A DNA stretch of 64,000 nucleotides from Candidatus Pacearchaeota archaeon (GTDB lineage: Archaea > Nanobdellota > Nanobdellia > Pacearchaeales > GW2011-AR1). The stretch spans positions 465-64,464 of the forward strand of contig JAFCFJ010000008.1 of assembly GCA_017608705.1 (NCBI GenBank). Direction: 5' to 3'. Both the position numbers and the translations under genes were made by a program. Under the pieces are notes generated by a model. It was not told the origin of the DNA. It saw only the letters and a program-made list of their open reading frames with translations, and made no database searches. This document shows, piece by piece, positions 507 to 60,698 of the stretch; position 1 is the first letter of the stretch, and every line of letters starts with the position of its first letter.

Positions 507-1103
507 ATGGTTACAAAGCAAGAAAAAGCCTTGCTTGCGCTCACACGTTTGTATCGTTATTATGGCAAGAGAAAGCGGTTGGTTGCTCAACAGCACGAGC
601 TATGGAAGGTTGTCATAGCCACGATTCTTAGCGCAAGAACTCGCGATGAAACTACCGCTGTTGTTTGGCCCTCACTCACAGATTTGGCAAGAGCAAAACC
701 GCGAGAGGTGATGAAAGTGATAAGGCCTATTGGTTTCTACAGGCAGAAGGCACGCTATGTCCTAGAGGTTGCGAGGCTCATTGCTGAGCAAGGAGTGCCA
801 CAAACCCGCGACCAGCTGATGAAATTGCCTGGTGTTGGGCGCAAGACTGCAAACATAATTCTCTCAGCAATGGGCAAGCCAGCTATTGCTGTTGATACAC
901 ATGTCCATAAGATCGCGAATAGGCTTGGTCTGGCTGACACGAGAAAACCTGTTGAGACAGAGACACAGCTTATGAAATTATTGCCAAAGCGCTACTGGAA
1001 TAAAATTAACTACATTTTTGTGATTCATGGCAAAACACTCTGCAAGAGAAAGCCAAGATGCGATGTTTGTCCTTTACACGACATATGTGATTTTGCCAGC
1101 TAA
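507..1103 (+). CDS. nth: Endonuclease III (HhH-GPD DNA glycosylase with a 4Fe-4S cluster)
   Basis: 198-aa ORF. HhH motif LPGVGRKTANIIL, and a C-terminal Cys cluster CKRKPRCDVCPLHDIC (C-x6-C-x2-C-x5-C). Confidence 0.9.
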   Translation: MVTKQEKALLALTRLYRYYGKRKRLVAQQHELWKVVIATILSARTRDETTAVVWPSLTDLARAKPREVMKVIRPIGFYRQKARYVLEVARLIAEQGVPQTRDQLMKLPGVGRKTANIILSAMGKPAIAVDTHVHKIANRLGLADTRKPVETETQLMKLLPKRYWNKINYIFVIHGKTLCKRKPRCDVCPLHDICDFAS

Positions 1104-8560: not shown

Positions 8561-8923
8561 GAGGTAGTCTGTGATAAAACAATCCTCGTTTTCAAAAAGC
8601 CTGCTTATGAATTCGTTAAGTTGCTTCTCACTTTTGAATATACATTCTAGCCATAGATCATATTTTCCATAGACTTTTCCGTAACTTTTGGCAAATCTTC
8701 AGAAAATTTTTGCGCCATGCTTGGCTTTTCAAATTTCAGAAAGAGAGCAGCATAGCAATTATAGCCGAGCTTGCTCCAGTCCACAAGAGGGAAGAATTTT
8801 CTTATAAGTCCTTCTTTAAGATATTTTTTTATTCTGTATTCAACCTGGTTTCTCGATAGTTTTGTAGCCTTTGCTATGATAAAGATAGCACAATAGTCTT
8901 ATGTCTGTTTCTTTTAGTTTCAT
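8561..8923 (-). pseudogene. Degenerate N-terminal Lrp/AsnC module (HTH plus RAM) with two frameshifts, in frame with the downstream Lrp
   Basis: ATG at 8921-8923 gives MKLKETDIRLLCYLYHSKG, then stop. A +1 frame gives AIFIIAKATKLSRNQVEYRIKKYLKEGLIRKFFPLVDWSKLGYNCYAALFLKFEKPSMAQKFSEDLPKVTEKS. A third frame gives YGKVYGKYDLWLECIFKSEKQLNEFISRLFENEDCFITDYLLIKPQF, which runs into the 7997-8560 ORF. Confidence 0.55.
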
Positions 8924-9915: not shown

Positions 9916-10477
9916 ATGAAGAGAATTAACTCCTTAGAGAATAGTCTGCAAGGTAACGAAACCAAAACTGTGGCGGATTATATTCAGGGTAAGCCACGCG
10001 GAACTTTACATGGCGAAATAATTATAGGAGAGCTTATTTGGGGGAAACAAAATCAATCCGAATTTTATGTAGGGCTCTCACATTTTTATTCTGATAGATG
10101 AAAAACCACGCGATGTGGGTGAACCACTTATTAAATATAGGAAAGTTCTTGCAAGAAAATTTGTTGGCAGACTTTATCAATATCTTGAGAAAACTGCTAG
10201 GAAAGGTAAGGAAGCTGTATTACGTGAGGTGGAGAAAAAAATTTCAACCACAGCGAGGGTGCCGAAACCGGAAAACAGGAAAACTTTGTTCGAGAATCTG
10301 AAATATGTATTTGCAGATTTGGAAAAAATAGGTTATAACGAGGCTGAGGTTCTTGAACAGCTGAAAGTTGCATGTGAGATTAGCAAGAAATATGGCCATA
10401 CTGAGGAATGGCAGTATAGCGAGTTCTTAACCAGGCTTGCATCTATCATACAGAAGTATTGGCAGCAGAAAAAGTAG
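9916..10477 (+). CDS. Hypothetical protein, possibly a single gene split by a +1 frameshift near a T5 run (~10083-10087) into 61-aa and 120-aa ORFs
   Basis: The frame of the 120-aa ORF (GTG start at 10115) stays open upstream to 10073, overlapping the end of the 61-aa ORF (stop at 10099-10101). No recognisable domains. Confidence 0.35.
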
Positions 10478-12131: not shown

Positions 12132-12203
12132 GGGGCTGTGGGCTAGTGGTTAGGCTTCCGGCTTAGGGAGCCGGCGACCCCGGTTCAAATCCGGGCAGCC
12201 CCA
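12132..12203 (+). tRNA. tRNA-Pro paralog whose canonical fold gives an unusual anticodon AGG (A34)
   Basis: GGGGCTGTGGGCTAGTGGTTAGGCTTCCGGCTTAGGGAGCCGGCGACCCCGGTTCAAATCCGGGCAGCCCCA. Anticodon stem CCGGC/GCCGG with loop TTAGGGA. Acceptor and T-arm are identical to the tRNA-Pro(CGG) at 50788. Confidence 0.7.
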
Positions 12204-21117: not shown

Positions 21118-22554
21118 ATGCCAAACATAAAGCTGAAAGCCGGCTTGGAGATACATCAGCAGCTCGATACAGGAAAGCTTTTCTGCCGTTGTAAGAGCAT
21201 TTTACGTAAGGACAAGCCAGATTTTATCGTGACACGCAAGTTGCACGCTGTTCCTGGCGAGACTGGCGAGATCGATGAAGCTGCATTGTTTGAGCATCTC
21301 CGTGACCGAGAGTTTGTATATGAAGGTTACTATGATAACACCTGCCTGGTTGAGCTTGATGAAGAACCGCCGCGTGAAATAAATAAGGAGGCGTTGGAGA
21401 TAGCATTACAAATTGCTTTGTTACTTAACTGCAAGATTCTGCCTGTGACACAGATAATGCGTAAGACAGTGCTTGATGGAAGCAATGTTTCTGGCTTTCA
21501 GCGTACTGTTTTGATAGCTAAGGATGGCTATGTAGAGACAAGCTATGGCAAGATTGGTATCGCTACTATTTGCCTAGAGGAAGATGCGGCAAGAATCGTG
21601 AGGCGTGAGGACAAGCGTGTTGTGTATAGGCTTGACAGGCTTGGCATACCACTTGTGGAGATAGCTACAAAGCCAGAAATAAAATATGCAAGACAGGCGA
21701 GAGAAGTTGCATTGCATATAGGTGAAGTGCTGCGTGCCTGCAAGGTGCGTCGCGGTATTGGAACGATACGGCAGGATGTTAATCTTTCCGTTAATGTTGA
21801 TGGTAAGCAAGGCGCAAGAATAGAGATCAAGGGTGTGCAAGAGCCAAGGCTTATAGAAAAGACAATAGAAACTGAGGTAAGAAGGCAGGTGGAGCTTATC
21901 GCAAAGGGGGAGAGCAAGCCAGAAGTGCGGAAAGCATTGCCGGATGGCACAACAGAATTTCTTAGGCCTTTGCCCGGTGCCGCGAGAATGTACCCAGAGA
22001 CAGACTTGCCATTGTTGAAAATACCTAGAGAGTTAGTAGACAGCATAAGACATGCGCTGCCGAGACTAAAGCATGAGATGAGGCAAGAGCTTGAGAAGCA
22101 AGGCCTGAATAAGGAACTAATTAAGGTGTTGCTTGATAGCGGAAAGCTTGATGATTATAAGGAATTACTGCGTGTGTATAATAAACCAGACTTCGTGGCC
22201 AAGCTCGTGGCTCTCTGGCCACGCGAATTAGCGAGCCAGGCCAGCATTTCAGTAGAGGACGTTGAGAGTAAGATTAATAATGATATCAAAGCAAAATTGC
22301 TCGAGACAGTGAAGCAAGGAAAGCTTGATGAAAGTCTTGTCAAGCAGGTCATGCAGGCTGTGCTTGATGGCAAACCTCTGGAGGAAGCTATGAAAATTGA
22401 AAAGCCAGAAAACCTCGAGGAAGAAATTATGAAGCTTGTTAAGGAAAAGCCAGGTCTTAGCATTAATGCTTACATGGGCCTTATTATGTCAAGATTCAGG
22501 GGAAAGGTTAGTGGCAAGGAAGCTGCAGAAATTCTTAAAAAGATCCTTTCATAG
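21118..22554 (+). CDS. gatE: Glu-tRNA(Gln) amidotransferase subunit E (GatB/GatE family). At 478 aa it is shorter than the ~620-aa GatE from memory.
   Basis: GLEIHQQLDTGKLFCRC, CLVELDEEPP, GAARMYPETDLP (GatE-type, where GatB has ADYRYFPEPDLP), and a C-terminal GatB/YqeY-like tail. It is the partner of gatD, 2.6 kb upstream. Confidence 0.75.
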   Translation: MPNIKLKAGLEIHQQLDTGKLFCRCKSILRKDKPDFIVTRKLHAVPGETGEIDEAALFEHLRDREFVYEGYYDNTCLVELDEEPPREINKEALEIALQIALLLNCKILPVTQIMRKTVLDGSNVSGFQRTVLIAKDGYVETSYGKIGIATICLEEDAARIVRREDKRVVYRLDRLGIPLVEIATKPEIKYARQAREVALHIGEVLRACKVRRGIGTIRQDVNLSVNVDGKQGARIEIKGVQEPRLIEKTIETEVRRQVELIAKGESKPEVRKALPDGTTEFLRPLPGAARMYPETDLPLLKIPRELVDSIRHALPRLKHEMRQELEKQGLNKELIKVLLDSGKLDDYKELLRVYNKPDFVAKLVALWPRELASQASISVEDVESKINNDIKAKLLETVKQGKLDESLVKQVMQAVLDGKPLEEAMKIEKPENLEEEIMKLVKEKPGLSINAYMGLIMSRFRGKVSGKEAAEILKKILS

Positions 22555-26449: not shown

Positions 26450-26743
26450 ATGGACTTTCTATGGCATAGAGTTAGCAAGGAAGAGCGAGAAGAAATAAAG
26501 CAAGAGGCAAAGGCTATTATGGACAGGTTTGTTAATGCACTGGAGAGAGCGGGTATCAGCGATATTGCTGAGGAAGGCTTTCTGGAGCGCGAGAGCTTTG
26601 AGCGTGATGAAATGCATACGGAAAAGAGACGCGAGGAAGAAAAGGACAGGGGTAAGCGCGAGAACGGGTTTCGTGATTTAATGTTCCAGAATGCTAAAAA
26701 AGTTAAAGATGGCTTCATCGTGGCTGAGAAGAAAAAATGGTAA
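26450..26743 (+). CDS. gatC: Glu/Asp-tRNA amidotransferase subunit C, putative
   Basis: 97 aa. VSKEEREEIKQEAKAI N-terminal helix, and a C-terminal NAKKVKDGFIVAEKK resembling the GatC NAP..dGyfkVP end. Its 3' end overlaps the gatA start by 7 nt. Confidence 0.55.
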   Translation: MDFLWHRVSKEEREEIKQEAKAIMDRFVNALERAGISDIAEEGFLERESFERDEMHTEKRREEEKDRGKRENGFRDLMFQNAKKVKDGFIVAEKKKW

Positions 26744-28065
26744 ATCTAGCCAAGGTTTCAGCTGTGGAGAAGCTGAAATTATTGCAGGCAGGAGAGCTAA
26801 CTGCGGAAGAGAACATAGAGTTTTTTCTTCAGCAAATTAATCCTAATGCGCTGGAGCAAGCCAAAGCAATAGACAGAAAGCTGAGAGAAGGCAAGGCAGG
26901 AAAACTGGCAGGCTTGGCTATTGCTGTAAAGGCAAATATAAACGTTAGAGGGCTTAACGCTAACTGCGCGAGCTTGACGCTCAAGGACTATATTAGCCCG
27001 TATGATGCGAGTGTTATAGAGGCCATAAGACGTGAAGATGGCATAGTGATTGGCATCACAAACATGGATGAATTTGCCTGCGGGTCAAGTGGCGAGACCT
27101 CTGCTTTCGGCCCAACAAAGAATCCGCACCGGCATGAGCTTATTCCTGGTGGCTCGTCAAGTGGTTCTGCTGTCGCTGTCGCTGCTTGTCTCAGTGATTT
27201 GGCCTTAGGAAGTGATACGGGCGGAAGCATAAGGAATCCTGCAAGCCATTGCGGTGTTGTTGGTGTAAAACCAAGCTACGGCATGGTATCGCGTTACGGC
27301 CTTATAGATCTGAGTATGAGTCTTGACCAAATCGGGCCTATTGCAAGACACGTAGATGACGCAAGACTCTTGTTTGATGTCATCGCTGGCAAGGACGAGA
27401 GAGATGCCACGACCTTGCACGATAAGCATGATGAAGCCAGGAAAGCAAGGCTAGCCAAGAGGCCGAAGATAGCCTTGCCTGTTGTTCAGGCTGATGAAAA
27501 AATAATAACGGCTGTGCAAGAGAATGTGTATAGAATCGCACAAGAAGTTGAGGCTGAGATTAGCGAAATAAAGATTGACCATATAGATCTTGCTGTCCAA
27601 ACATATTATCCATTGGTCTATGTAGAATTTTTTTCAGCCACACGTCGTTTTGATGGCAGACGTTACGGCGAGCGTATAGAGGAGGTGGCTGGACCTGAAG
27701 TTTTACGTAGAATTCTTGGTGGTAGCGAGATAAGTAAGGCAGAGTATGCTGGCCGTTACTATAGGCGCGCGCTTGCTGCACGTGCTTTGATAAGGCAAGA
27801 GCTTGATAAAATCTTTGAGAAATTTGATTTCATCATAATGCCTACTGTACCGCGATTGCCACACAAGATTGGTCAGGCGCTTAGCGTTGAGGAAATGTAT
27901 GCATACGATTCGCTTACCGTTCTCGCCAATCTGGCAGAATTGCCTGCAATAAGCATTCCTGTAGCGAAAATCAATGGTATTCCAGTTGGAATGCAAATTC
28001 TTGCAAGCCGGTATGGTGATGGCAGGCTCTTTGCATTTGCGAAAAGGTGCGAAGAAATCCTGTAG
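26737..28065 (+). CDS. gatA: Glu/Asp-tRNA amidotransferase subunit A (amidase signature family)
   Basis: 442 aa. Amidase signature GGSSSGSAVAVAA...GSDTGGSIRNPAS, with Ser-cisSer-Lys triad context. Confidence 0.9.
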   Translation: MVNLAKVSAVEKLKLLQAGELTAEENIEFFLQQINPNALEQAKAIDRKLREGKAGKLAGLAIAVKANINVRGLNANCASLTLKDYISPYDASVIEAIRREDGIVIGITNMDEFACGSSGETSAFGPTKNPHRHELIPGGSSSGSAVAVAACLSDLALGSDTGGSIRNPASHCGVVGVKPSYGMVSRYGLIDLSMSLDQIGPIARHVDDARLLFDVIAGKDERDATTLHDKHDEARKARLAKRPKIALPVVQADEKIITAVQENVYRIAQEVEAEISEIKIDHIDLAVQTYYPLVYVEFFSATRRFDGRRYGERIEEVAGPEVLRRILGGSEISKAEYAGRYYRRALAARALIRQELDKIFEKFDFIIMPTVPRLPHKIGQALSVEEMYAYDSLTVLANLAELPAISIPVAKINGIPVGMQILASRYGDGRLFAFAKRCEEIL

Positions 28066-30093: not shown

Positions 30094-31086
30094 ATGGTGC
30101 TTGATATTGCAAAAGAGGCCATAGAAAATGCAGAAAATTATAGCATAAATTTTGACGAGCTTAAGGCTGGCAAAGCCAACATCAAGGTTTTTGGTGTTGG
30201 TGGTGCGGGATGTAATGCAGTGACGTGGCTTTTCAACAAAGGCATCAATGGCGCAACAGTGTATGGTGTAAATACAGATGCGTTGCATCTTAGCATAACA
30301 AAGGCTGACGAGAAGATACTGATTGGCAGAGAACTTACGAGAGGTCTAGGTTGCGGTGGCTATCCTCAAAAAGGCAGAGAGGCTGCGAAGGAATCTATTC
30401 AAGAGATAAAGAAGTGTGTGAGCGGTGCTGATATGGTGTTTGTTGTTGCAGGAATGGGTGGCGGAACGAAAGCAAGGATCGATAAGGCAGAATTTGGTTT
30501 GCAAGAGCTTCGTGAAGTTACAGACACAGTAATAGTAATAGACAACAACAGGCTTGTGGATATAGCTGGCAACTTGCCGATAGAGCAAGCTTTCGCGGTG
30601 GCGAATGAATTGATCAGTACAATGATTAAGGGTATTGTAGAGACAATAACCTTGCCGAGCTTGATTAACCTTGACTATGCAGATGTGCAAGCGATTATGA
30701 AGAGGGGCGACGTTGCTGTAATAGGTATTGGCGAAAGTGATACACAAAATAGAGTAGAGGAGGCTGTTAGGCAGGCATTGACACATCCATTGCTTGATGT
30801 GGACTACCGTGGCGCTACAGGCGCGTTGATCCATGTGACATGTGGTCCTGACCTACGCTTGGAAGAGTTTGACGGTATCGGCAAGCTAGTGACAGAGAAC
30901 ATCTCGCCAGACGCGCAGGTGATTATTGGTGCAAGAATCAACAAGGAATTTGAGGGTAAAGTTAGGGTTATAACTATTATGACCGGTGTTAAAAGTCCAT
31001 ACATCTTAGGCAAGCCGGGGGAGCCAGAGGCAAGTGGCGTGACAACGAGTGAGATCTCGGATTTGGGTATAGAGGTGTTGAAATAA
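30094..31086 (+). CDS. ftsZ: Cell division GTPase FtsZ homolog carrying an in-frame ~31-aa deletion after GGGT (T4 loop, S5 and H5 missing)
   Basis: IKVFGVGGAGCNAV, TKADEKILIGRELTRGLGCGG, and DMVFVVAGMGGGT, then directly KARIDKAEFG, where canonical FtsZ has GGGTGTGAAPV(V/I)AE...VVTKPFxFEG. The rest (NLDYADV T7 loop, and a C-terminal domain ending VRVITIMTGV) is well conserved. From memory, it is close to methanogen FtsZ1. Confidence 0.8.
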   Translation: MVLDIAKEAIENAENYSINFDELKAGKANIKVFGVGGAGCNAVTWLFNKGINGATVYGVNTDALHLSITKADEKILIGRELTRGLGCGGYPQKGREAAKESIQEIKKCVSGADMVFVVAGMGGGTKARIDKAEFGLQELREVTDTVIVIDNNRLVDIAGNLPIEQAFAVANELISTMIKGIVETITLPSLINLDYADVQAIMKRGDVAVIGIGESDTQNRVEEAVRQALTHPLLDVDYRGATGALIHVTCGPDLRLEEFDGIGKLVTENISPDAQVIIGARINKEFEGKVRVITIMTGVKSPYILGKPGEPEASGVTTSEISDLGIEVLK

Positions 31087-34188: not shown

Positions 34189-34599
34189 TTATATTTTGCC
34201 TTTTGCGGGTTCTTTTGCTCCGCATGCAAGACAATGCAAGAACAAAATCCGGTCTTGTTTTATCAACTCCGTATCTGGTTTACCGCACATAGGACATATA
34301 ACATAATTCTTTACGTATGATTCTATTTTCTGATTGATTCTTCCTGCAGGAATCTTTCTGTTGAGCACAAGCCTCTCGTTGTCTACTTGTGCAGGCGCTG
34401 CTAATTCTTTCATCAAGAATTTTGCCAAATGTTGCGGCTCCCGTCTGAGTTTCGAGGCTATCGCAAGAAAATTTGTTATTATTGTTCTGTTTCCTGCCAC
34501 CGCAATACTTGCTTTCGGTACTTCAAAACGTTCGCTACTTTTCTCTACTACCTTCACCTTTCTGTAAGCTTCCTCAAGCAGTTCTTCATAATCTTCCAT
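34189..34599 (-). CDS. eif2b: Translation initiation factor 2 beta subunit (aIF-2 beta)
   Basis: 136 aa. C-terminal C4 zinc finger VICPMCGKPDT...LHCLACGA, and a central helix-turn-helix core typical of aIF2-beta. Confidence 0.9.
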   Translation of the reverse strand: MEDYEELLEEAYRKVKVVEKSSERFEVPKASIAVAGNRTIITNFLAIASKLRREPQHLAKFLMKELAAPAQVDNERLVLNRKIPAGRINQKIESYVKNYVICPMCGKPDTELIKQDRILFLHCLACGAKEPAKGKI

Positions 34600-40062: not shown

Positions 40063-43000
40063 ATGGAAAAGGTAAAGGCAATATTCCTGCGTGCCTGTCC
40101 TAATTGTGGTAGGGCTATTTCAGATGTTAGGCTAAGAGAAGGGAGCGTTTGTGTTAAATGTTTGGAGAGGAAGATTGCTTATAAGCAAGAACGTGACGTG
40201 GAAAAAATTTACAATGCACTCAGGAAAAATAATAGGTTGGAATCCTATGGTGAAATTTACAATTTTTATGATGCGGTGAAGCGCATTGAGGAATTTTTCA
40301 AACAAACTACTGGCGTATTACCTTGGAGCTCCCAGCTTGCGTGGATGAAGCGCATTATTCGTGGCGAAAGTTTCTCTATTGTCGCAAGCACAGGCATGGG
40401 TAAGACAACCTTTTGCTTAGTCGCAGCACTTTACTTTGCTTTACAAGGCAAAAAATGTTATCTGGTTTTTCCCACTTCTGTGTTGGTAGAGCAGGCAAGC
40501 GAAAAAATAAGAAATTTTGCTGAGAAAATAAATGCGAGCCTGTCAATCTTATCTTATTCTGCAAAGAGTAAGAATAAGAATGAGATCAAGAAAAAAATTG
40601 CAAGTGGAAATTTTGATATCTTTTTGAGTTCAACACAATTCCTTGCGAGGAACTTCCAGATTCTTGGTGACAAGCGTTTTGATTTTATTTTTGTCGATGA
40701 TGCTGACTCGCTCCTGAGATCATCAAGGAATATAGAGAGAGTGATCAAATTATTGGGCTTTACAGATAAAGCTATGGAAGTTGCATACAGGATTGCGCAA
40801 GAGAGAGTTAGGGGTAATGAGGCTGTTGTGAGAAAACTTGAAAGAAGAATAGAGAAAATGAAGCAAGACCACGGAATTCTTATCGTGTCTAGTGCTACAG
40901 GAAGGGCAAAAGGTAAGAAAATTGTTTTATATCGGGAGCTTCTTGACTTCGAGATAGGTAGTTCGGCAGAGAGCCTAAGGAATGTTCAGGATGCATACAC
41001 GCATGGGGATATTGTCAGGATTGTCAAGGAATTAGGTAGGGGAGGTTTGGTTTTCGTTTCGCAAGAGTTAGGGCTAGAGAAGGCAAAAGAAATTTGCAAA
41101 AGGCTAAGAACTGAGGGCGTGCGTTGTGGTGTTGTTCATGCACAAGACAAGAGCGGGATAGAGAAGCTGAGAGATGGCGAGCTTGATGTTCTTGTTGGTG
41201 TGGCTAGTTACTATGGTGTTCTTGTTAGAGGCCTGGACTTTCCGCATATTATACGTTATGCTGTGTTTTACGGCGTGCCAAAATTTAGGTTCTCTCTCTC
41301 GCTTGAGAATCCTACCATTTACAGCGTTATAGCGATACTTGATTTACTTGCAGATGTTCTTGAGGGAAATGAAAAAGAAATAGCCCAGGGCCTTGCCCTA
41401 AAACTTAGGCGTGCTGTATCGAGAATTCCAGTAGAGGTTATACGTGCTATCGAAAGGAATGAGAGCAGCGAGAGGTATAGCGGTCTCAGCAAATTGTTTA
41501 GCCAAGCTACAGATTTTGTCAGGAAGGTAATGGCAAGCCAAAATGTGGTGGAGAAACTTGCTAGCCATGAATATGCAAATGTGGTTAAAGAGCAAGATCG
41601 CTTGTTTGTTGAAATTCCTGATGTACGAACATATATTCAGGCAAGTGGCCGCACGTCTCGTTTGTATGCTGGCGGAATCACGCGTGGCCTGAGCGTGGTT
41701 GTTGTTGATAATGAAAAACTTTTTCACGCACTGATGGCTGGCTTAAGATGGCGTTATCCAGAAGCAAAATTTGTTGAGTTCGAGAAGCTGAAACTTGACA
41801 AGCTTCTCAAAGAAATTGATGAGGACAGGGAAAAGGTGAGACGGATTCTTGAAGGCAGAGCAGACATAAAAGGCACGAGAGAGCTGGTAAAGATAGCGTT
41901 GATGATAGTGGAGTCACCAAATAAGGCAAAGACCATTGCTAACTTTTTTGGGAAACCGAGCAAGAGAAAATACGGCAAACTGGTTGCCTACGAGGTTTCT
42001 ACAGGCAAGCTTTTACTGACGATTGTTGCTACTGTAGGACATGTTTTTGATTTGGTAACGAGAATAGGGAAAGATGGTGTTTTCGTGAATAGCAGGTTTG
42101 TTCCTGTCTATGATACCCTGAAAAAAACTGCAAGGGGTGAACAGTTTGTTGATCAACTTTCGCTTGAAAATGCAGAGAATGACAAACTTGAAACGCTTAA
42201 GTCTATTGTAAAACTAGCCCAGGAAGTCGATGAAGTCTACATAGCCACGGATCCAGATGTTGAGGGAGAAAAAATAGCATGGGATGTTTCTCTTTTTCTT
42301 AGACCATATATTACCAAAATTTACAGGACAGAGTTTCATGAGGTTACGAGGCATGCTATAGAAGAGGCCATAGAAAAGAAGAGAGCACTGAACGAGAAAC
42401 TTGTTGAGGCTCAGATTGTAAGAAGAATAGAAGATAGATGGCTCGGCTTTGGTCTTAGTCGTTTCTTGCAGAGACATTTCAGAAAAAAAGGTTTGTCTGC
42501 AGGCCGTGTCCAAACCCCTGTTCTCGGCTGGATTATAAACAGAACAGAAAAACATAAGAAAAGCCTTTCTAAGTTTACTAGGCTTATACTCGAGAATGGT
42601 CTTGAAATTGTTATCCGGGGCATAGTTGATGCACAGCATGTTACAGTTAGAAGCGTGCATGTTGAAACAAGAGAGCTGAAGCCACGAGCACCTTATGTTA
42701 CACATTCTATGATAAGAGATGCCTCTGCGATACTTGGTTTTTCTGCCAGCTACACAATGAAGCTAGCGCAAGAATTGTTTGAAAGTGCACTTATCACGTA
42801 TCACAGAACAGACTCCACGCGTGTTTCGCTTACAGGCATTGCCATTGCCAAGCAATACATCGGGGATAAGTTTGGCAGGAAGATGTTCGTAGGGAGAAGA
42901 TGGCAAACATCTTCTGGCGGAGCTCATGAGTGTATAAGGCCAACACGTGCTGTTGATGGAAGACATCTTGAGCGTTTGATTGCAGAAAACATTATCACGC

Positions 43001-43578
43001 CTGCGGTTAGGATAACAAAACACCATCTCTTGCTTTATGATATGATCTTCAAAAGATTTGTTGCTAGCCAGATGAAACCTGCGAAGGTGAAAATACAGAA
43101 AGCTATCTTGCAATGTGGGAATGAGCAAGTGGAGATAGAAAATTTTATCGAGATTGTGGAAGCAGGATGGATGCAGCTTTATCCAACAAAACTTGTACAA
43201 GAGTTAAAGGCAGGACAGGAGCTTCGCGTTGTGAAACATGAAACTTTCTCTGCTCATACCATACCGTTATATACAGAGGGCGAAGTTGTAGAGGAGATGC
43301 AGAAGAGAGGCATAGGCAGACCATCTACATATGCCCAAATAATTTCCGTTTTACTTAGGCGCGGATATGTTATCAAAAAAGGAAAATATTTATTTGCAAC
43401 TAGACTTGGATCATTTGTGCATGCTTTTCTTGTAAGGAGATTTCCAAAAATGGTTTCTGAGGAACGCACGAGAAGACTTGAGCAAGAGATGAGGTATGTG
43501 GAAGAGGGAAAGATGCATTACCAGGATGTGCTTAAAAAAATTTATAATGAGTTGAGAAGAGAGGCGATAATTTTTTAA
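40063..43578 (+). CDS. rgy: Reverse gyrase (SF2 helicase-like domain fused to a type IA topoisomerase)
   Basis: 1171 aa. N-terminal Zn finger CPNCG...CVKC. Helicase Walker A ASTGMGKTTF and DDAD. TOPRIM IVESPNKAKTI. Topo IA active-site Tyr in LITYHRTDSTRVS. The length is consistent with an uninterrupted single-chain enzyme. Confidence 0.95.
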   Translation: MEKVKAIFLRACPNCGRAISDVRLREGSVCVKCLERKIAYKQERDVEKIYNALRKNNRLESYGEIYNFYDAVKRIEEFFKQTTGVLPWSSQLAWMKRIIRGESFSIVASTGMGKTTFCLVAALYFALQGKKCYLVFPTSVLVEQASEKIRNFAEKINASLSILSYSAKSKNKNEIKKKIASGNFDIFLSSTQFLARNFQILGDKRFDFIFVDDADSLLRSSRNIERVIKLLGFTDKAMEVAYRIAQERVRGNEAVVRKLERRIEKMKQDHGILIVSSATGRAKGKKIVLYRELLDFEIGSSAESLRNVQDAYTHGDIVRIVKELGRGGLVFVSQELGLEKAKEICKRLRTEGVRCGVVHAQDKSGIEKLRDGELDVLVGVASYYGVLVRGLDFPHIIRYAVFYGVPKFRFSLSLENPTIYSVIAILDLLADVLEGNEKEIAQGLALKLRRAVSRIPVEVIRAIERNESSERYSGLSKLFSQATDFVRKVMASQNVVEKLASHEYANVVKEQDRLFVEIPDVRTYIQASGRTSRLYAGGITRGLSVVVVDNEKLFHALMAGLRWRYPEAKFVEFEKLKLDKLLKEIDEDREKVRRILEGRADIKGTRELVKIALMIVESPNKAKTIANFFGKPSKRKYGKLVAYEVSTGKLLLTIVATVGHVFDLVTRIGKDGVFVNSRFVPVYDTLKKTARGEQFVDQLSLENAENDKLETLKSIVKLAQEVDEVYIATDPDVEGEKIAWDVSLFLRPYITKIYRTEFHEVTRHAIEEAIEKKRALNEKLVEAQIVRRIEDRWLGFGLSRFLQRHFRKKGLSAGRVQTPVLGWIINRTEKHKKSLSKFTRLILENGLEIVIRGIVDAQHVTVRSVHVETRELKPRAPYVTHSMIRDASAILGFSASYTMKLAQELFESALITYHRTDSTRVSLTGIAIAKQYIGDKFGRKMFVGRRWQTSSGGAHECIRPTRAVDGRHLERLIAENIITPAVRITKHHLLLYDMIFKRFVASQMKPAKVKIQKAILQCGNEQVEIENFIEIVEAGWMQLYPTKLVQELKAGQELRVVKHETFSAHTIPLYTEGEVVEEMQKRGIGRPSTYAQIISVLLRRGYVIKKGKYLFATRLGSFVHAFLVRRFPKMVSEERTRRLEQEMRYVEEGKMHYQDVLKKIYNELRREAIIF

Positions 43579-43626
43579 TTAACATCTTTATTTTTATTAT
43601 GTTAGTTTTGATCTTGTGGTGTTAAG

Positions 43627-44379
43627 ATGAAAATCAAAGAGGGCATGCTTGTATTGCTTCTCGGCAAGGAAGGTAGCTATCTTGTGCATGCGCGCAAGGA
43701 AAAATTCAATGTTTCAGAAGGTATTGTAGATTTGGGTGAGCTTATAGGTAAGAATTTCGGCACAAAAATAAAAACACACAAGGGTTACGAGTTTGCTGTT
43801 GTTAAGCCGAGCATTGTGGATTTTCTTATGAAAAAAGCAAAGATGATGCCTCAGGCAGTAAGGCCAAAAGATAGTGCTTTGATTTTGGCTTACACAGGAC
43901 TCAGGAATAATGCCAGAATTGTCGAGGCTGGAACAGGAAGTGCATGGCTCACACTGTTTTTAGCGAGCGCGTGTTCGAAAGGCAAGATTTACAGCTACGA
44001 GATGCGGAGAGATTTTTATCTTAATGCAAAGAAGAATATTGAGGCAAGCGGAATGAAAAATATCGTGTTGAAAAACAAGAATATTCTCGATGGTATTGAT
44101 GAGAGGAATGTGGATGCTGTTATTTTGGATATGTTGCATGCAGAAAAGGCCATACCTTTGGCGTACAAAACATTGAAACCTGGTGGCTGGCTTGTTGTTT
44201 ACTCACCATATATCGAGCAGGTAAAGGCTGTTAATGAGGAAATAGCCAAATATAATTTTACTCAGGTCAGCACTGTGGAGAATATCCTTAGGGCATGGGA
44301 TGTGCGCGAGCATACACTGCCACGACGTCATGGTTTGATGCATACAGGTTTCCTTACATTTGCGAGAAAGGTTTTCTGA
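43627..44379 (+). CDS. trmI: tRNA (adenine57/58-N1)-methyltransferase TrmI (Gcd14 family)
   Basis: 250 aa. N-terminal beta-barrel, then a Rossmann motif VEAGTGSAWLTLFLA. Confidence 0.8.
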   Translation: MKIKEGMLVLLLGKEGSYLVHARKEKFNVSEGIVDLGELIGKNFGTKIKTHKGYEFAVVKPSIVDFLMKKAKMMPQAVRPKDSALILAYTGLRNNARIVEAGTGSAWLTLFLASACSKGKIYSYEMRRDFYLNAKKNIEASGMKNIVLKNKNILDGIDERNVDAVILDMLHAEKAIPLAYKTLKPGGWLVVYSPYIEQVKAVNEEIAKYNFTQVSTVENILRAWDVREHTLPRRHGLMHTGFLTFARKVF

Positions 44380-44394
44380 TGTTTCAGCTATATA

Positions 44395-46110
44395 TCAAGA
44401 TTTTTTCCTGCCTGTTTCCTTTTCCCACTCCTCTCTTATTTCACTCAGCGTTGCTATATCACTCGGAGAGCGATCGGGTCTTAGTCTTGTTATTCTTGGG
44501 AATCTCAGAGCAAAGCCGGAAGCATATTTTGGACTTTTTTGGATGTTCTGATAAACTACGGTAACCACGATTTTTGGCTTTATCCTGACATCTCTGCCGT
44601 GTTCTTCTACGATCAAGGGTTTCAACATTTTTGTTAGTTCATCAAAGCTTAAACCAACCTCTTGCTTTTCCTTTATTCCTGTCCCGACCTTACCAACCTC
44701 GAGGAAGTTTCCTGTTTTTTCATCACGACAAGCAATAACAAAACTTGAGAGCCAGCCTCCGCGTTTCCCTGTGCCATACTCCGCGCCCACGATCACGAGA
44801 TCAAATTCCTTTTCCTCAGGCTTAATCTTGAGCATATAACCAACACGGGCTCCAGGTTTATAAGGCGCATCAAGATTTTTTGCCATAAGCCCTTCGTGTC
44901 CTGCTTTCAACGCTTTCCTGAAAAAACTCTCTGCTTTGCTCTCACTATCGGTGATCAATTGTTCTGCTGGTTTTAGCTCGAGTTTCTTGCCTTTTACTAT
45001 TTTCCTCAAAAGCTCACTTCTTTTCCTGAAAGGCTCGTTGAGCAGAGATTTGCCATTGTAGTATATTATATCGAAGACATTCACCTCTACTGGCAATTCC
45101 TTGCTCAGCTTTTCTATGTCATATTTCCTCTTTATTCTTTGGCTTATTTCTTGGAATGGCCTGTACTTCTTTGTACGTGGCGAGTAACCTACAGCTTCGC
45201 TATCTATGATAAAACTCTTAGCCTTGATATACTTCTTAACATACTCTACAACTTCAGGAAATTGTTTTGTTACATCCTCGAGCCGTCTCGTGAATATTGT
45301 AATCTTGCCATCCTCGCTCTTGTTGAGCATCATTCGAAAGCCATCATACTTGAATTCAAAAGCAGCAGGCTTGCCAACCTGCTCAAAAGCATCAGCAATA
45401 TTTTTTGCTTTCAATGCGAGCATCACCTTTACAGGCTTTCCTGGCACGAGCATAATCTCCTCTAATTTTTTTACACCATGACATGCGGCCTCAAACACAG
45501 CAGCAAAATCATTAGCTTTGTCATAAGCTGCTTCAACGCTTGCTACATATTCTTTTGCCTTTTCTCTCCCGAAGCAAGCCCATGTTATAGCATCCCGCAT
45601 TATGCCCTCGCCTGTCCCTACACGGAGTTCGCCGAGAACCGTCCTGATAAGGTAGCGTGCCTCTATTGGCTTGGCCGCGGAAAGCAATTCAGCAAGCAAG
45701 CTTATCTTTTTCTCTATTGTGCCCGGTCCTTCGAGCTCTGCTGCTTTACGCAAATTTTCTAAGACCTTCTCCGTGGTAAGCTCTTTTTGGAAAAGTGTGA
45801 TTTGCTTTTTTTTCTTAACCAGCTTTTCCGCTGTTTTACCAAGATCTCCTGATTTTTTCCATTCCTCTACTACATCTTCTGCTGGTATGCCTGTCGCTTT
45901 GCTTATCGCTTTTATCGCGAGCTGTGCTGAAATGCCAACTTCTTTCTGCGAATAATCTGGAAACACACTTCCGCGAAGCAGATAAATGATTTCTTTGTTC
46001 TTTTCCTTCTTGAGCTTGTGGAGAAAGTTTGCGAGAATCTCTGTTTTATCAAGCCTGCTGCTTGTGGCCTCAAGCCTCTCATAAATTTTGCACAGTTCCT
46101 CATATTTCAT
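44395..46110 (-). CDS. lig: ATP-dependent DNA ligase
   Basis: 571 aa. Motif I FEFKYDGFR (KxDG). Motifs III-VI and a C-terminal OB domain present. Confidence 0.95.
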   Translation of the reverse strand: MKYEELCKIYERLEATSSRLDKTEILANFLHKLKKEKNKEIIYLLRGSVFPDYSQKEVGISAQLAIKAISKATGIPAEDVVEEWKKSGDLGKTAEKLVKKKKQITLFQKELTTEKVLENLRKAAELEGPGTIEKKISLLAELLSAAKPIEARYLIRTVLGELRVGTGEGIMRDAITWACFGREKAKEYVASVEAAYDKANDFAAVFEAACHGVKKLEEIMLVPGKPVKVMLALKAKNIADAFEQVGKPAAFEFKYDGFRMMLNKSEDGKITIFTRRLEDVTKQFPEVVEYVKKYIKAKSFIIDSEAVGYSPRTKKYRPFQEISQRIKRKYDIEKLSKELPVEVNVFDIIYYNGKSLLNEPFRKRSELLRKIVKGKKLELKPAEQLITDSESKAESFFRKALKAGHEGLMAKNLDAPYKPGARVGYMLKIKPEEKEFDLVIVGAEYGTGKRGGWLSSFVIACRDEKTGNFLEVGKVGTGIKEKQEVGLSFDELTKMLKPLIVEEHGRDVRIKPKIVVTVVYQNIQKSPKYASGFALRFPRITRLRPDRSPSDIATLSEIREEWEKETGRKKS

Positions 46111-46190
46111 GTAACCAAAAGGAAGAAGGATTATTTAAGATTTCTGTTTTATTCCTGGCTGTGGATGAAAATAAGGAAGAAAAATAAGAA

Positions 46191-46478
46191 TCAGTCCCAA
46201 AACACGATTTTGCCTTCAAGACCATGTTCTCTTATCAGCTGTGCTATATTCCTTCTTTCGCTCTCCGTTCCGATCGTTTCCACATACGCTGTTTTGTTTT
46301 CTCCTATTATTGTTTTTTGCACTCTTCCTGGAATGATTAGATACCGACCTTTTTTTGGAATCGATGTTTCCTCCACAAGAATTGTGCAACCACGCTCACA
46401 CTTGTCACAATGTAAATACTCTATCTTTCCGCCACTTCCACGGGCTCTCTCTTCGAAGCAGTAAGCCCTAATTCCCAT
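46191..46478 (-). CDS. Small hypothetical protein with a CxxC...C metal-binding knuckle (95 aa)
   Basis: HCDKCERGC. Convergent with the ligase neighbourhood. No family recognised. Confidence 0.4.
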   Translation of the reverse strand: MGIRAYCFEERARGSGGKIEYLHCDKCERGCTILVEETSIPKKGRYLIIPGRVQKTIIGENKTAYVETIGTESERRNIAQLIREHGLEGKIVFWD

Positions 46479-46653
46479 TTGAGGTGAAAACGCAAATGAA
46501 AATTGTTTTTTAAATATTTCTTAATTTTTGTAATATTCATAATTCTGATATATGCTTTATGGCTGAGTAAAAATTTAGGTGTTTAACTTGCTTTCGCAAA
46601 AAAACGAAAGATATAAAAAGCATTTTTGTGTTCTCAATAGAGAAAAGGGGAAA

Positions 46654-47430
46654 ATGCTAGGAGCAAAATTTGGGAAAAAGCATACTCTTGCATTGGTTCT
46701 TGTGCTTGTGGCTATTACCGCGATTTTTGTTGTACGTGCCATCAATGGCAATACTGTTGATACAAGCAAACCATGGCATCCGCTTCAGCAAATAGCAAAG
46801 GATGAGACGAGTTTTGAGAGTGTGGATGCTAATGCTAACGGTATCATAGATGAGGCTGAAAATGCAAGTTATGCTGAAAGAGCAGGAACTTGCGATAGTT
46901 GTGGTGCTGGTGTGAAAAGTGGTGATGTTGTAGCTGGTTATCTTTTGCTGTATGCTTCATATACAGATTCTAGAGGATTAAGAGAAGGAGTGACAGGGGC
47001 AGACTTTGTCTCTCCGACGATGTATCTTGGTTCTTCTAAAGATGCATGGATGGAGATGATAAAATTGGAGTATTCAGCTTACGAGCGCTTGCAACATCCA
47101 TGGCTTTTGCAATGGGCGCCTATAGCGTTGCGTGGAGACGAGTTTGATAAAGATTTTGTTAATGTGCCATGCTACTTCCCAGAAGCCGGAAAATACAAGA
47201 TTGTAATAAGGGTCAAGAACGCGAATGAGAACGGTTATAAGTTCTGGATAGATGGTAAGGAAGAAAACTGGGGATATCCTACATATTATGTACAGTCATT
47301 TGGAGATGGGTCAAAACTTTACGAGCTTTCTTGGGATATAAACACTCCTGGAGTAAAAACATGTAGGTTCCGAACAAATTTAGATAGTGATCCTGATTTA
47401 TTTTATGGCTTCTTCATCTATAAGGCTTGA
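46654..47430 (+). CDS. Secreted or membrane-anchored hypothetical protein with an EF-hand/dockerin-like Ca-binding loop
   Basis: Start taken at the ATG at 46654 (MLGAKFGKK...). N-terminal TM/signal LALVLVLVAITAIFVV. DANANGIIDEAE matches the DxNxDGxIDxxE calcium-binding loop. Confidence 0.5.
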   Translation: MLGAKFGKKHTLALVLVLVAITAIFVVRAINGNTVDTSKPWHPLQQIAKDETSFESVDANANGIIDEAENASYAERAGTCDSCGAGVKSGDVVAGYLLLYASYTDSRGLREGVTGADFVSPTMYLGSSKDAWMEMIKLEYSAYERLQHPWLLQWAPIALRGDEFDKDFVNVPCYFPEAGKYKIVIRVKNANENGYKFWIDGKEENWGYPTYYVQSFGDGSKLYELSWDINTPGVKTCRFRTNLDSDPDLFYGFFIYKA

Positions 47431-47543
47431 GCGTGATGGTTGAGTAACCAAAGGGGATGGGCTGGTGAGAGCCAGGATTTTAGCATCTGGAATCGATTTG
47501 AAAACTAAGAAAGAATTAAAAATCCATTTCTCTGTATTGTTTT

Positions 47544-48980
47544 ATGACAATGCCTGTGGCTGGACAAAAGACTGAAGATAGGTCTGTGAAGGCAAGAGCA
47601 CGTATAGGCTTAGAGATTCATGTTTATTTGCTCACGCGGGAAAAGCTATTCTGCCGTTGTAAGGCTGAACATGGTAAGAAGCTTACTGAGCCAAATACAA
47701 ACATATGTCCTATATGCACAGGGCAGCCAGGAGCCAAGCCAATGTTGCCCAATAAGGAAGCTATAGACAAAGCACTGAAAATCGCATTAATGCTGAACTG
47801 CAAGATAAATACTGGCAAGGATGGTAAGGTTGTGGTATGGCAGAGGAAACACTATGATTGGCCAGACTTGCCAAAAGGCTATCAGGACACGCAGAGCGGA
47901 GCATACAGCGTGCCTCTTGCCATCAACGGGAAGTTTGAGGGTATAAGGATAAAAGAATTACATGTAGAAGAAGATCCTGCTTCATGGAATCCAGAAACAG
48001 GAGCAATAGATTATAACCGTAGTGGCATACCTCTTGTAGAAATTGTTACCGAGCCTGATTTTAGCAGTGGCGAGCAGGTTGTTGAATGGCTGAAGAAACT
48101 TATGCTTGTTCTTGCATATGTTAAGGCAATAGATAAGACCGCAGGATTGAAAGCTGATGTTAATATTTCTCTTGTAGGCGCGAACGATGATGCGAGAGTA
48201 GAAGTTCTGAACAGTCTTGAGGCAATAGAAAAAGCGATAGCTTACGAGATCAGGAGACAGGAGCAAGAAGGCACATCACGCGAGACAAGACGTTATGATT
48301 CAGCTAAAGGCAAGACCGTGAAGATGCGTGAAAAAGAAACGCAAGCAGATTATCGGTTTATTCCTGATCCTGACTTGCCCATGCTGAAGATTAGCCAGGC
48401 CCGTGTGGAGAAATTGAAAAAAGAGTTGCCAGAGGCACCACAGAAAAAACTTGAAAAGCTTCTCTCGGAGCATGGCATAGATAAAAAAGCAGCGGATGTG
48501 CTTGCTAACGACGTAGATTTAGTTATGCTCTTCGAGAGGGTCGTTGGTCTTGGCATAAAACCTGCAACCGCGGTCAAGTGGCTCACCATAGAGCTGTTGC
48601 GTGTTCTTAACTATAACAAGCTAACTCTCGACGAATGCGAGATCAAGCCAGAGCATGTAGCAGAACTTATCAGGCTTGTTGAGGAAGGCAAGATTACAGA
48701 GCTTAAGGCAAAACAAATTCTTAACGAGTTTGTGCCACGATCGTTTTCACCAAGACAAAAGCTGAAAGAGGCAAAGAAGATTACAAGCGTTGCTGTTTTG
48801 GAAGGAATTATCGATAACGTGCTGGCAAGTAATGAGAAAGCTGTCCAAGACTATATGAGTGGTAAGGAAGAAGCATTCAATTTTCTGCTTGGCCAGATTA
48901 TGAAGGCAAGCGAAAGGCGTGCTGACTATAGGCTTGCATCTAAGCTATTAAGAAAAAAGCTTGATGCAAGAAGCGCTTAG
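47544..48980 (+). CDS. gatB: Asp/Glu-tRNA amidotransferase subunit B
   Basis: 478 aa. IGLEIHVYL...KLFCRC. ADYRFIPDPDLP (GatB-type). C-terminal GatB/YqeY domain. Confidence 0.9.
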   Translation: MTMPVAGQKTEDRSVKARARIGLEIHVYLLTREKLFCRCKAEHGKKLTEPNTNICPICTGQPGAKPMLPNKEAIDKALKIALMLNCKINTGKDGKVVVWQRKHYDWPDLPKGYQDTQSGAYSVPLAINGKFEGIRIKELHVEEDPASWNPETGAIDYNRSGIPLVEIVTEPDFSSGEQVVEWLKKLMLVLAYVKAIDKTAGLKADVNISLVGANDDARVEVLNSLEAIEKAIAYEIRRQEQEGTSRETRRYDSAKGKTVKMREKETQADYRFIPDPDLPMLKISQARVEKLKKELPEAPQKKLEKLLSEHGIDKKAADVLANDVDLVMLFERVVGLGIKPATAVKWLTIELLRVLNYNKLTLDECEIKPEHVAELIRLVEEGKITELKAKQILNEFVPRSFSPRQKLKEAKKITSVAVLEGIIDNVLASNEKAVQDYMSGKEEAFNFLLGQIMKASERRADYRLASKLLRKKLDARSA

Positions 48981-50283: not shown

Positions 50284-50802
50284 ATGAAAATCGCTGTTAT
50301 GTCTGACACGCACGAGCAAGAAGGGTTAGTGAGGAAAGCCCTTTCCATGATAAAGGAGCAAGGCATAAACAAGATTTATCATTGTGGCGACATCATATCG
50401 CCATTGCTGCTTGATAGCTTCCGTGGTTTTGATGTTAGCTTTGTTTATGGCAATAATGATGGTGAGCGTCGTGGCTTGGCGAGTAAGGCAAGAGAGCTTG
50501 GTTTCAAGATCGCAGACGGGCTTGTTGTCAAGCATGCGGGGAAGAGCATCTTGGTTCTGCATGGCCACAACAGAGTAAGCCTTATGAAAGCTATACACCT
50601 GCAAAGATTTGATTTTATTTTTACTGGCCATACACATAGAGCTCACATAGAGAGGATAGGAAAAACATTGCTTGTGAACCCAGGGGCATTATTTCATGCC
50701 AAGCCGAGTTTTGCTATTGTTGATCTTGCAAGAGAAAATGCAGAATTGGTTTGGCTTAACGAGCAACATGCTGGTGAGGATGCTCATGGGGCTGTCGGCT
50801 AG
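50284..50802 (+). CDS. Metallophosphoesterase (YfcE/MJ0936-like phosphodiesterase)
   Basis: IAVMSDTHE, HCGDI, GNND, LHGH, GHTH. The last 15 nt overlap the 5' end of tRNA-Pro(CGG). Confidence 0.8.
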   Translation: MKIAVMSDTHEQEGLVRKALSMIKEQGINKIYHCGDIISPLLLDSFRGFDVSFVYGNNDGERRGLASKARELGFKIADGLVVKHAGKSILVLHGHNRVSLMKAIHLQRFDFIFTGHTHRAHIERIGKTLLVNPGALFHAKPSFAIVDLARENAELVWLNEQHAGEDAHGAVG

Positions 50803-50861
50803 TCTGGTTAGGCTTCAGCCTTCGGGAGGCTGCGACCCCGGTTCAAATCCGGGCAGCCCCA
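50788..50861 (+). tRNA. tRNA-Pro (anticodon CGG)
   Basis: GGGGCTGTCGGCTAGTCTGGTTAGGCTTCAGCCTTCGGGAGGCTGCGACCCCGGTTCAAATCCGGGCAGCCCCA. Anticodon loop TTCGGGA. Confidence 0.85.
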
Positions 50862-50923
50862 TTTTCAAATTATCTTTGTTTTATCATAATTAAATTTTTA
50901 AATTCCTTCTGCAGGAATGTCTC

Positions 50924-58117: not shown

Positions 58118-58471
58118 ATGTCTGACATCTTCAATGAGCGTGTGATGTGTAGCAAGTGTGGAAAAGAAATGACAAAGCGTGTATTTGAGCGTGACGGCTT
58201 TAAGCTTAGGGGATGGCAATGTGAGTGTTGCGGAAAGAGGATTTTGCATCCGGCGGACGAGGAAAAATATAAGGATTTCAAGAGAATAAAGAACAAGATT
58301 TTTAAAGTAAAGCTGCGTATGGTTGGAAACAGCTACGCGGTGAGCATTCCAAAAGAGGTTATAAGTTTTATGCGGGAACAAGAAAGACTGGCAAGCCGGA
58401 TAGTAAAGCTATGCATAGAGGAAGCAAAAAAGCTTGCCCTTATATTCAACGAGTTTGATGAGGCAAAATGA
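58118..58471 (+). CDS. Zinc-ribbon plus AbrB/SpoVT (swapped-hairpin) domain protein, translationally coupled to cdc48
   Basis: CSKCGK...CECCGK ribbon. [23 protein letters not shown] swapped-hairpin motif. Its stop overlaps the cdc48 ATG (ATGA). Confidence 0.55.
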
Positions 58472-60698
58472 AGAAAGTAAAGCTTAAGGTTGTTGAAGCA
58501 TTGCAGGATGATGCATACAAAGGCATAGCAAGGATAGACAGCGAAATCATGAGAGAGCTTGGTGTTAGACGTGGTGATGTTATTTCTATCAAAGGCGAAA
58601 GAGAAACTGTTGCTATTGTTGACAGAGCATATCCGGCAGACGTTGGCGAGGGTATAATAAGGATAGATGGAATCATACGTAGGAATGCAAAGACAGGGAT
58701 TGGGGAGTATGTAGAGGTAAGCAAGGCGGATGTCAAGGAAGCGAAGAAAGTTATGATCGCTCCTGCCCAGCAAGGTGTTGTCGTGCAAGCAGATCCGGAA
58801 ATTTTCAAGCGCGGATTACTTGGCAGAGCTGTTGTTAAAGGCGACATAGTTGTTCTTGGCGGTGCAAGACGGAGACGGGACATAATGGAGGAAAGCTTCC
58901 AGGATATATTCGATATTTTTGGTGATGCTATTAGTGGGTTTATGCCTACCCTCAGCCAGATGAGGTTTGTTGTTGTTCAGCTAACACCAAACCAGCCTTG
59001 CATTATCACAGAAAATACCGACATTGTTGTGTCGCCGAAAGCTGTTGAGATAAGCGAGGAGAAGGTGCCTGAAGTGACATATGAGGATATTGGTGGCCTG
59101 GACGAGGAGATAAAGAAGATAAGAGAAATGGTAGAGTTACCGCTTAAACATCCTGAGATATTCTCACGACTTGGAATTGAACCTCCTAAAGGCGTGCTCT
59201 TGTACGGCCCTCCTGGCACAGGCAAGACCTTGCTTGCTAAGGCAGTAGCCAATGAAAGCGAAGCTAATTTCATAGCTCTGAATGGCCCAGAGATTATGAG
59301 TAAATACTACGGTGAAAGCGAAAAGAGGATATCATATTCATTGATGAAATAGATGCGATAGCGCCGAAACGTGAGGAGGCATATGGTGAAGTAGAAAGGC
59401 GTGTGGTATCTCAGCTTTTAACCATGATGGACGGCCTGAAATCGAGGGGCAAGGTGATAGTGATAGGCGCTACTAATAGGCCAAATGCTCTCGATCCCGC
59501 CTTACGAAGGCCTGGAAGGTTTGACAGAGAGATAGCAATTAATGTTCCGGACAAGAAAGGAAGACTTGCTATACTCAAGATCCACACACGCAACATGCCT
59601 CTGGCCAAAGATGTGAATCTTGAGGAGATAGCTGCCATAACACATGGTTTTGTCGGTGCCGACCTTGCAAGTTTATGTAAAGAAGCTGCGATGGCTGCTT
59701 TACGTCGTATTTTGCCTAAGCTAAAACTTGATGAGATGGAGGAAGTTCCGAGAGAAGTATTAGAGCAACTTATTATAACACGACGAGATTTCTTTGAAGC
59801 CTTGAAGGTTGTTAGGCCAAGTGCCATGCGCGAAGTTTTAGTTGAAACTCCTAATGTTAAATGGAGTGATGTAGGCGATTTAGAAAAAGTGAAACAGGAG
59901 CTAAGAGAGGCGGTAGAGTGGCCACTTAAATATCCTGATGCTTTCAAGCGTATGGGTATTACACCTCCGAAAGGTATATTGCTGTACGGCCCTCCTGGCA
60001 CAGGCAAGACCTTGCTTGCTAAGGCTGTAGCTACAGAGAGCGAGGCTAACTTCATCCAGGTTAAGGGTCCTAGCTTGCTTAGTATGTGGGTAGGCAAGAG
60101 CGAAGAGGGTGTAAGGAAAACTTTTGAGAGGGCAAGACAGGTTGCTCCTTGCATTATCTTTTTCGATGAAATAGATGCGTTGGCAGCGAGACGTGGCCTT
60201 GAGACAGGTACCAAGGTTACAGAGCGCGTGCTTAATCAGTTGCTTGCGGAGATGGATGGTATAGAAGAGTTAACTAATGTTGTAGTTATCGGAGCCACTA
60301 ATAGGCCAGACATGCTTGATCCTGCTATCCTAAGGCCTGGCAGATTCGACCGCGTGCTACTTGTTCCGCCACCAGACAAAAAAGGTAGGCTGGAGATACT
60401 CAAGATCCACACACGCAACATGCCTCTGGCCAAAGATGTGAATCTTGAGGAGCTTGCAGAAAAAACAGAGGGCTATGTTGGTGCTGATCTTGAGGCATTG
60501 GCAAGGGAAGCGGCAATGCTTGCACTAAGGAGAAGTAAGATGAAGGCAAAGGAAGTTAAGATGAAGGATTTTGAGGAGGCGATGAAAAAGATTAAGCCAA
60601 GTGTGACAAAGGCTGATATAGAACGCTACAAGAAGCTAGAAGAACAATACCTGAAATCAGCAAGAGCGGCATTGGAGTCGCCGTGGTATACGGGTTAA
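58468..60698 (+). pseudogene. cdc48: Cdc48/VCP-like AAA+ ATPase (N domain, D1, D2) disrupted by a ~43-nt deletion and frameshift between the D1 Walker A and Walker B
   Basis: ORF 58468-59352 encodes the N-domain and D1 Walker A ([26 protein letters not shown]...YGESEKR), then runs ISYSLMK and stops. A different frame continues from ~59330 with [16 protein letters not shown]...[11 protein letters not shown]...D2 ([22 protein letters not shown]...[10 protein letters not shown]) to 60698. The expected ~14 residues (LREIFEEAE.NAPS) are absent. Confidence 0.85.

Follow-up and report, generated by a model that had tools for sequence, protein, structure and literature searches.

FtsZ has the FtsZ/tubulin fold, in which GGGTG[ST]G is the phosphate-binding signature and S5 is one of the inner strands of the nucleotide-binding sheet. 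Its archaeal relatives with altered function, CetZ and the FtsZ-like proteins, are diverged throughout and have kept the nucleotide-binding core. Among solved structures, the closest to the protein considered here is M. jannaschii FtsZ1 (PDB 1FSZ, 1W5E, 1W58; E ∼2e–76), which aligns with it over S1–T4 and again from H5 to the C-terminal domain, while residues 136–166 of the M. jannaschii protein have no counterpart in our ORF. The ORF belongs to a 64,000-nucleotide stretch of archaeal DNA (the window; all positions are counted from its first letter). Local assembly errors in MAGs are a known source of incorrect protein sequences in public databases (PMC7111523). Our analysis shows that the 330-aa FtsZ recorded here is very probably an artefact of the same general kind, with 90 nt lost while the consensus was built.

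The recorded gene and its missing segment

As deposited, the ftsZ ORF occupies 30094..31086 of the plus strand and encodes 330 aa; the true gene would encode 360. The recorded protein scores 320.2 bits against the FtsZ equivalog model TIGR00065 (cutoff 295.2) and so belongs to that family. It also matches the Pfam domains Tubulin (PF00091, 101 bits) and FtsZ_C (PF12327, 116 bits), the former match being broken into two pieces, the best of which covers profile positions 1–122 of 190. The N-terminal part (30094..30467, plus strand) retains S1–S4 and T4 up to GGGT, the first half of that loop, and the part from H5 onwards (30468..31086, plus strand) retains H5, S6, H6, H7, the T7 loop NLDYAD, the C-terminal domain and the C-terminal peptide. 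The T7 synergy motif NxDxxD is found at residues 192–197 of the recorded protein and the FtsZ_C domain at residues 207–300. What the ORF lacks is the complete T4 signature GGGTG[ST]G, in place of which it has GGGT-KAR, and the six-stranded nucleotide-binding sheet with H4, S5 and T5, as these elements are absent.

The size of the gap depends on the reference. HMMER splits the match to M. jannaschii FtsZ (1fsz/1w5e) so that query T125 corresponds to T135 and query K126 to K167, leaving 31 residues of the M. jannaschii protein unmatched. Measured against the organism's own lineage it is exactly 30 aa (90 nt), GTGAAPVVAQVAKESGAVVIGVVTMPFDCE, which is G126–E155 of the intact protein. In the DNA the junction is at 30467..30468 (plus strand), within codon 125; it is blunt, and the missing 90 nt run from AGGTACTGGC to GATTGTGA. 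In the window GGCGGAAC is followed directly by GAAAGCAAGG, while the intact version reads GGCGGAAC followed by AGGTACTGG at one end and GATTGTGA followed by GAAAGCAAGG at the other. Codon 125 has thereby become a hybrid (AC/A...GA/G to ACG) that still encodes Thr, a synonymous change.

Structural elements were assigned from a model of the intact protein (P0002), whose pLDDT is only 57 and whose element order is that of canonical FtsZ and 1FSZ. The model places S4 at residues 114–120, T4 at 121–128, H4 at 129–139, S5 at 143–150, T5 at 151–155 and H5 at 156–172. By these modelled boundaries the segment lost comprises the C-terminal half of T4 (GTG), H4, S5 and the T5 loop; H5 (KARIDKAEFGLQELREV) is present in the window ORF. 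Judging from the sequence, such a loss would deprive FtsZ of half of the phosphate-binding signature and of an internal strand of the sheet.

A first-pass annotation of this DNA had reported an in-frame deletion in FtsZ after GGGT. It is real in the deposited sequence, as the ORF, the HMM match and the M. jannaschii alignment all attest, and the accompanying statement that this is the sole FtsZ of the window agrees with our search, in which no second ftsZ was found within the 64 kb. Several details need adjustment. The junction, given as 30468/30469, was placed correctly to within 1 nt, and the estimate of ∼31 aa lost holds against M. jannaschii and becomes 30 aa against the organism's own lineage. 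S5 and half of T4 are indeed removed, as had been proposed; H5, listed with them, is kept, and H4 and T5 are lost as well.

An intact counterpart is available from two JGI samples, 3300033149 and 3300033156 (149 and 156 below), which contain assemblies of the same Pacearchaeota-like genome. Both siblings have a complete ftsZ of 360 aa, in which exactly 90 additional nt stand between positions 30467 and 30468; it is found on contig Ga0366834_1008447 in sample 149 (the source of P0002) and on contig Ga0366836_1001323 in sample 156. P0002 and the window protein (P0001) are identical at all 330 common residues, and the DNA flanking the window ftsZ matches both contigs at 100%. Over a longer distance, positions 20094–41136 of the window are ∼100% identical to Ga0366834_1008447, where the gene order (TYW3, a 112-aa ORF, ftsZ, nitroreductase) is also the same.

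No other record compared has this gap. A protein search retrieved P0001 itself once, and the best 119 other matches listed are ungapped at the site; one of them is P0002 with its 360 aa, and the remaining 118 are 347–378 aa long. We also collected 160 related loci from scans of GTDB species representatives and JGI metagenome contigs, ranging from Pacearchaeota-type relatives (≤86% identity) down to Nanohaloarchaea (∼55%), and residues 121–160 are ungapped in every one of them. Within the missing stretch, conservation among these relatives reaches 96% or more at 10 of 30 residues (G126, T127, G128, P131, I145, T149, M150, P151, F152 and E155, at 96–100%). The motif GGGTGTG occurs in the sibling allele and in the 160 relatives, with G126, T127 and G128 at 96–99% conservation. 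A search for more copies of the strain with an exact 32-nt pattern gave 0 matches in metagenome_contigs and genome_contigs, and protein-based scans for the same strain returned other species only (≤86% identity).

Blunt losses in the window and its siblings

Similar gaps occur elsewhere in the window and in its siblings. We compared the window with all sibling contigs over 57.1 kb, of which 46.7 kb are covered by both samples; the region 43090–48765 lies outside this comparison. Over ∼50 kb the window and its siblings differ by 0–5 SNPs (0–1 nucleotide differences from sample 156 and ∼5 from sample 149, besides a few at contig tips). Against this near-identical background the window has at least 8 blunt losses of 16–90 nt, five of them out of frame, and the siblings have at least 6 other losses of 9–50 nt, different from those of the window.

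In the window, 21 nt are missing before position 666 and 40 nt before position 1101 (665..1101, plus strand), in and just after an HhH-GPD gene whose product has 198 aa as recorded and 209 aa when repaired. Losses of 16 nt before 8688 and 26 nt before 8878 (8687..8878, minus strand) destroy the gene for a 322-aa HTH/AsnC-type regulator, and a loss of 35 nt before 10098 (10097..10098, plus strand) breaks a 198-aa ORF. A 48-nt loss before 26839 (26838..26839, plus strand) is in-frame, like the 90-nt loss before 30468 in ftsZ, and shortens the product of an amidase (GatA-like) gene at 26737–28065 to 442 aa from 458 aa in the intact version. Finally, 40 nt are missing before 59331 (59330..59331, plus strand), a frameshift in CDC48 (756 aa) that cuts within the first AAA domain and splits the gene into ORFs at 58468–59352 and 59403–60698. 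The losses of 48, 90 and 40 nt at 26839, 30468 and 59331 are contradicted by both siblings.

The siblings carry private losses of their own, located on L001, L002, L006, L008 and L010. Sample 149 lacks 48 nt at window positions 21447–21494 and 50 nt at 34360–34409, the latter frameshifting aIF2-beta and reducing it from 136 to 89 aa. Sample 156 lacks 9 nt at 543–551, 29 nt at 969–997, about 36–38 nt at 21193–21228 and 45 nt at 63200–63244. GatB accordingly comes in three lengths across the three assemblies, 478, 462 and 441 aa, owing to two different losses in samples 149 and 156. The siblings also disagree with each other beyond the window, where PolB has 819 versus 790 aa and deoxyhypusine synthase 314 versus 329 aa. 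When the missing segments were reinserted in silico, a single long ORF was obtained at every lesion, giving an HTH regulator of 322 aa, the 198-aa ORF, GatA of 458 aa, FtsZ of 360 aa and CDC48 of 756 aa.

Exact-protein look-ups are of little help in this setting. They returned 'not on record' for P0001 and for the ORFs at 47544–48980, 44395–46110 and 50924–52108, and such negatives are uninformative. The last of these ORFs (plus strand, 394 aa) encodes AdoMet synthase, and an identical gene is present in sibling locus L008 despite the negative look-up, for which reason we regard look-up negatives as unreliable.

Some other features of the window deserve mention. A reverse gyrase of 1171 aa with zinc finger, DEAD/ResIII helicase, Toprim and topoisomerase IA domains is encoded at 40063–43578 (plus strand), and its presence in a DPANN genome of 41% GC hints at a hot habitat. 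A separate topoisomerase IA of 745 aa lies at 52860–55097. A tRNA-Pro at 12132–12203 (plus strand) carries AGG as its anticodon (in the loop TTAGGGA), and A at position 34 of the anticodon is unusual in archaea. Another tRNA-Pro(CGG), at 50787–50862, is 89% similar to it.

Origin of the losses

The breakpoints of these lesions are blunt. Microhomology amounts to 0–3 nt across 13 lesions and to 0 at ftsZ, where the two breakpoints aligned to each other match at 4 of 24 bases. Paired breakpoints are 30% identical on average versus 27% for random positions with the same spacing (P = 0.12), and the flanking 16-mers show no repeats within the window. Lengths that are multiples of three were found in 6 of 13 lesions, with 4.3 expected by chance, so there is no frame bias and selection for reading frame was rejected as a factor. 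Hairpin skipping was likewise rejected, as the ftsZ segment has a DNA-fold z-score of –0.63, with no unusual hairpin potential, and the mean over 12 lesions is –0.57, a weak trend. It should be mentioned that lost segments taken with 12-nt flanks have a weak tendency to fold more stably than random windows, with 5 of 12 lesions at or below the 8% tail (for example those at window positions 1101, 8878, 26839, 21447–21494 and 34360–34409). N-runs are present neither in the window nor in any sibling locus, and stripping of Ns before deposition is conceivable.

Three ends of sibling contigs fall within 15 nt of window lesions (P ∼4e–5). In sample 156 one contig terminates in the middle of the 48-nt segment (window 26826–26862 area); the next begins 13 nt upstream of this segment and stops 5 nt before the 90-nt ftsZ segment; and a third begins 109 nt farther upstream and passes through the intact 90 nt. 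The contig ends at window positions 26826–26862 and 30354–30468 belong to L010, L004 and L003, and adjoining contigs overlap by 37 and 109 nt. Location of contig ends at lesion sites indicates local dropouts of read coverage. Lander–Waterman arithmetic matches eight gaps averaging 40 nt to uniform coverage of ∼5x by 150-nt reads. Uniformly low coverage is hard to reconcile with a contig of 74 kb, however, and the dropouts would therefore have to be local and sequence-dependent. We infer that lesion sites are poorly covered, possibly in a sequence-dependent manner and hence in common between libraries, and that reads spanning the ftsZ junction are absent. No paper mentioning 3300033149, 3300033156, Ga0366834 or Ga0366836 was found in a literature search for the samples and their pipeline.

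Loss during assembly most likely proceeded as follows. At poorly covered spots the flanks would be joined or abutted in the course of scaffolding, gap closing or consensus calling, and the uncovered bases would be omitted at the join without insertion of Ns, so that in one assembly the contig breaks at such a spot and in another the flanks are fused without the uncovered bases. The same process would have taken at least 7 other stretches (16–48 nt) from the window and different ones from the siblings, and the ftsZ of the organism would be an ordinary intact archaeal gene for 360 aa. Because 90 is a multiple of three, the gene caller delivered a clean-looking 330-aa protein that then passed into public databases. 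In favor of this account, the ftsZ gap is not reproduced in sibling assemblies of the same genome, and other lesions are also assembly-specific. Not everything speaks for it: besides the 74-kb contig, which is hard to obtain at uniformly low coverage, the ftsZ lesion and two more window lesions are in-frame, though no more often than by chance, and the coincidence of sibling contig breaks with lesions could also arise from two alleles coexisting in the reads.

That last possibility belongs to a biological reading, which we consider unlikely, namely that a genuine 90-nt ftsZ deletion allele was dominant in the sampled population. Going by its sequence, the FtsZ of such an allele would not bind GTP normally with half of the signature loop, H4, S5 and T5 gone, and would be non-functional or might even poison filaments. 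The in-frame length and the synonymous hybrid codon at the junction agree with a real deletion, as does the sibling contig that breaks 5 nt before the same breakpoint, since contig ends at lesions could be allele forks in the assembly graph. However, the overlaps and end positions described above do not coincide with the fork points that a bubble of two coexisting alleles, full and deleted, would produce; they agree with sites of sparse read overlap. Moreover, the same contig would then also hold true frameshifts in CDC48 and other genes, and each of three populations separated by 0–5 SNPs (∼50 kb) would have had to fix its own, different set of 5–8 blunt deletions of at least 9 nt, with core single-copy genes frameshifted and no accompanying small indels or substitutions. 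We know of no natural mutational spectrum that resembles such sets of blunt deletions at near-zero SNPs. The residues lost are nearly invariant in the 160 relatives and the stretch is among the most conserved of FtsZ, while the window offers no second ftsZ to compensate. A broader version of this reading, in which a near-clonal DPANN population carries sample-specific end-joined deletions of 9–90 nt (for example from error-prone double-strand break repair) and the in-frame ftsZ allele is at high frequency in one sample, seems to us a little less credible still. If the deletions were true, the mutational process behind them would appear to be an unusual one, and FtsZ would have a core-deletion allele in nature.

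Two further explanations can be put aside with greater confidence. Classical assembly collapse, or replication slippage between short flanking direct repeats, might have been expected from GGN-rich glycine codons near the T4 loop, which might form short repeats, but it is very improbable given the ftsZ breakpoints, their unrepeated flank k-mers and the similar character of the other 12 lesions; on the strength of blunt, non-repeated breakpoints, slippage, repeat-mediated recombination and de Bruijn repeat collapse are ruled out. A naturally degenerate non-GTPase paralog, or a lineage-specific short-loop FtsZ, is scarcely conceivable, even though the reading frame is uninterrupted and the rest of the ORF is well conserved. 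The ORF occupies the orthologous syntenic position, 100% identity of DNA and protein outside the gap leaves no divergence, and the gap occurs in 0 of the 119 other top homologs listed and 0 of the 160 related loci; a lineage-specific or paralogous FtsZ was rejected since its gap is unshared and its divergence from the intact allele is zero.

The first-pass annotation had left three origins side by side. Its degenerate paralog is refuted by the identity of 330 residues and the DNA to the intact gene and by 160 ungapped relatives out of 160. Its recent inactivating deletion appears unlikely, with other core genes frameshifted and near-zero-SNP siblings intact at ftsZ and bearing different lesions. 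Its 'assembly collapse' comes closest to the evidence as regards an assembly origin and fails as regards collapse, the junction being free of repeat or microhomology. Of the two outcomes it had named as decisive against it, a short loop shared by close relatives was seen in none of the 160 loci or 119 listed homologs, while a longer sequence at this position is supported by two independent assemblies.

Relation to known FtsZ systems and database records

The gap itself is biologically unimportant, as a normal FtsZ is almost certainly present in the organism. Its significance is that of a data-quality warning: a 330-aa protein stands in public databases as FtsZ, above the TIGR00065 cutoff, and the contig and its siblings contain about one silent dropout per 7 kb. 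Anyone relying on such records to study DPANN gene loss, pseudogenes or 'degenerate' core proteins would be misled.

Errors of this class were treated by Chen, Anantharaman, Shaiber, Eren and Banfield in 2020 (PMC7111523), and what their cases have in common with ours is a consensus that reads do not support and that leads to wrong proteins in databases. They report unsupported sequence, misplaced Ns and repeat miscounts, whereas N-free blunt dropouts of 9–90 nt are not specifically described; here, in addition, many lesions occur per contig and differ between assemblies of one genome. As for FtsZ, the sibling gene (Ga0366834_1008447, Ga0366836_1001323) lies at the same locus in the same gene order and adds the 30 aa that complete GGGTGTG, H4, S5 and T5. 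In contrast to CetZ and the FtsZ-like proteins, the window ORF has not diverged from FtsZ and instead lacks a piece of its core. What this Pacearchaeota-like DPANN archaeon has is almost certainly the standard FtsZ of archaea and not a new FtsZ variant.
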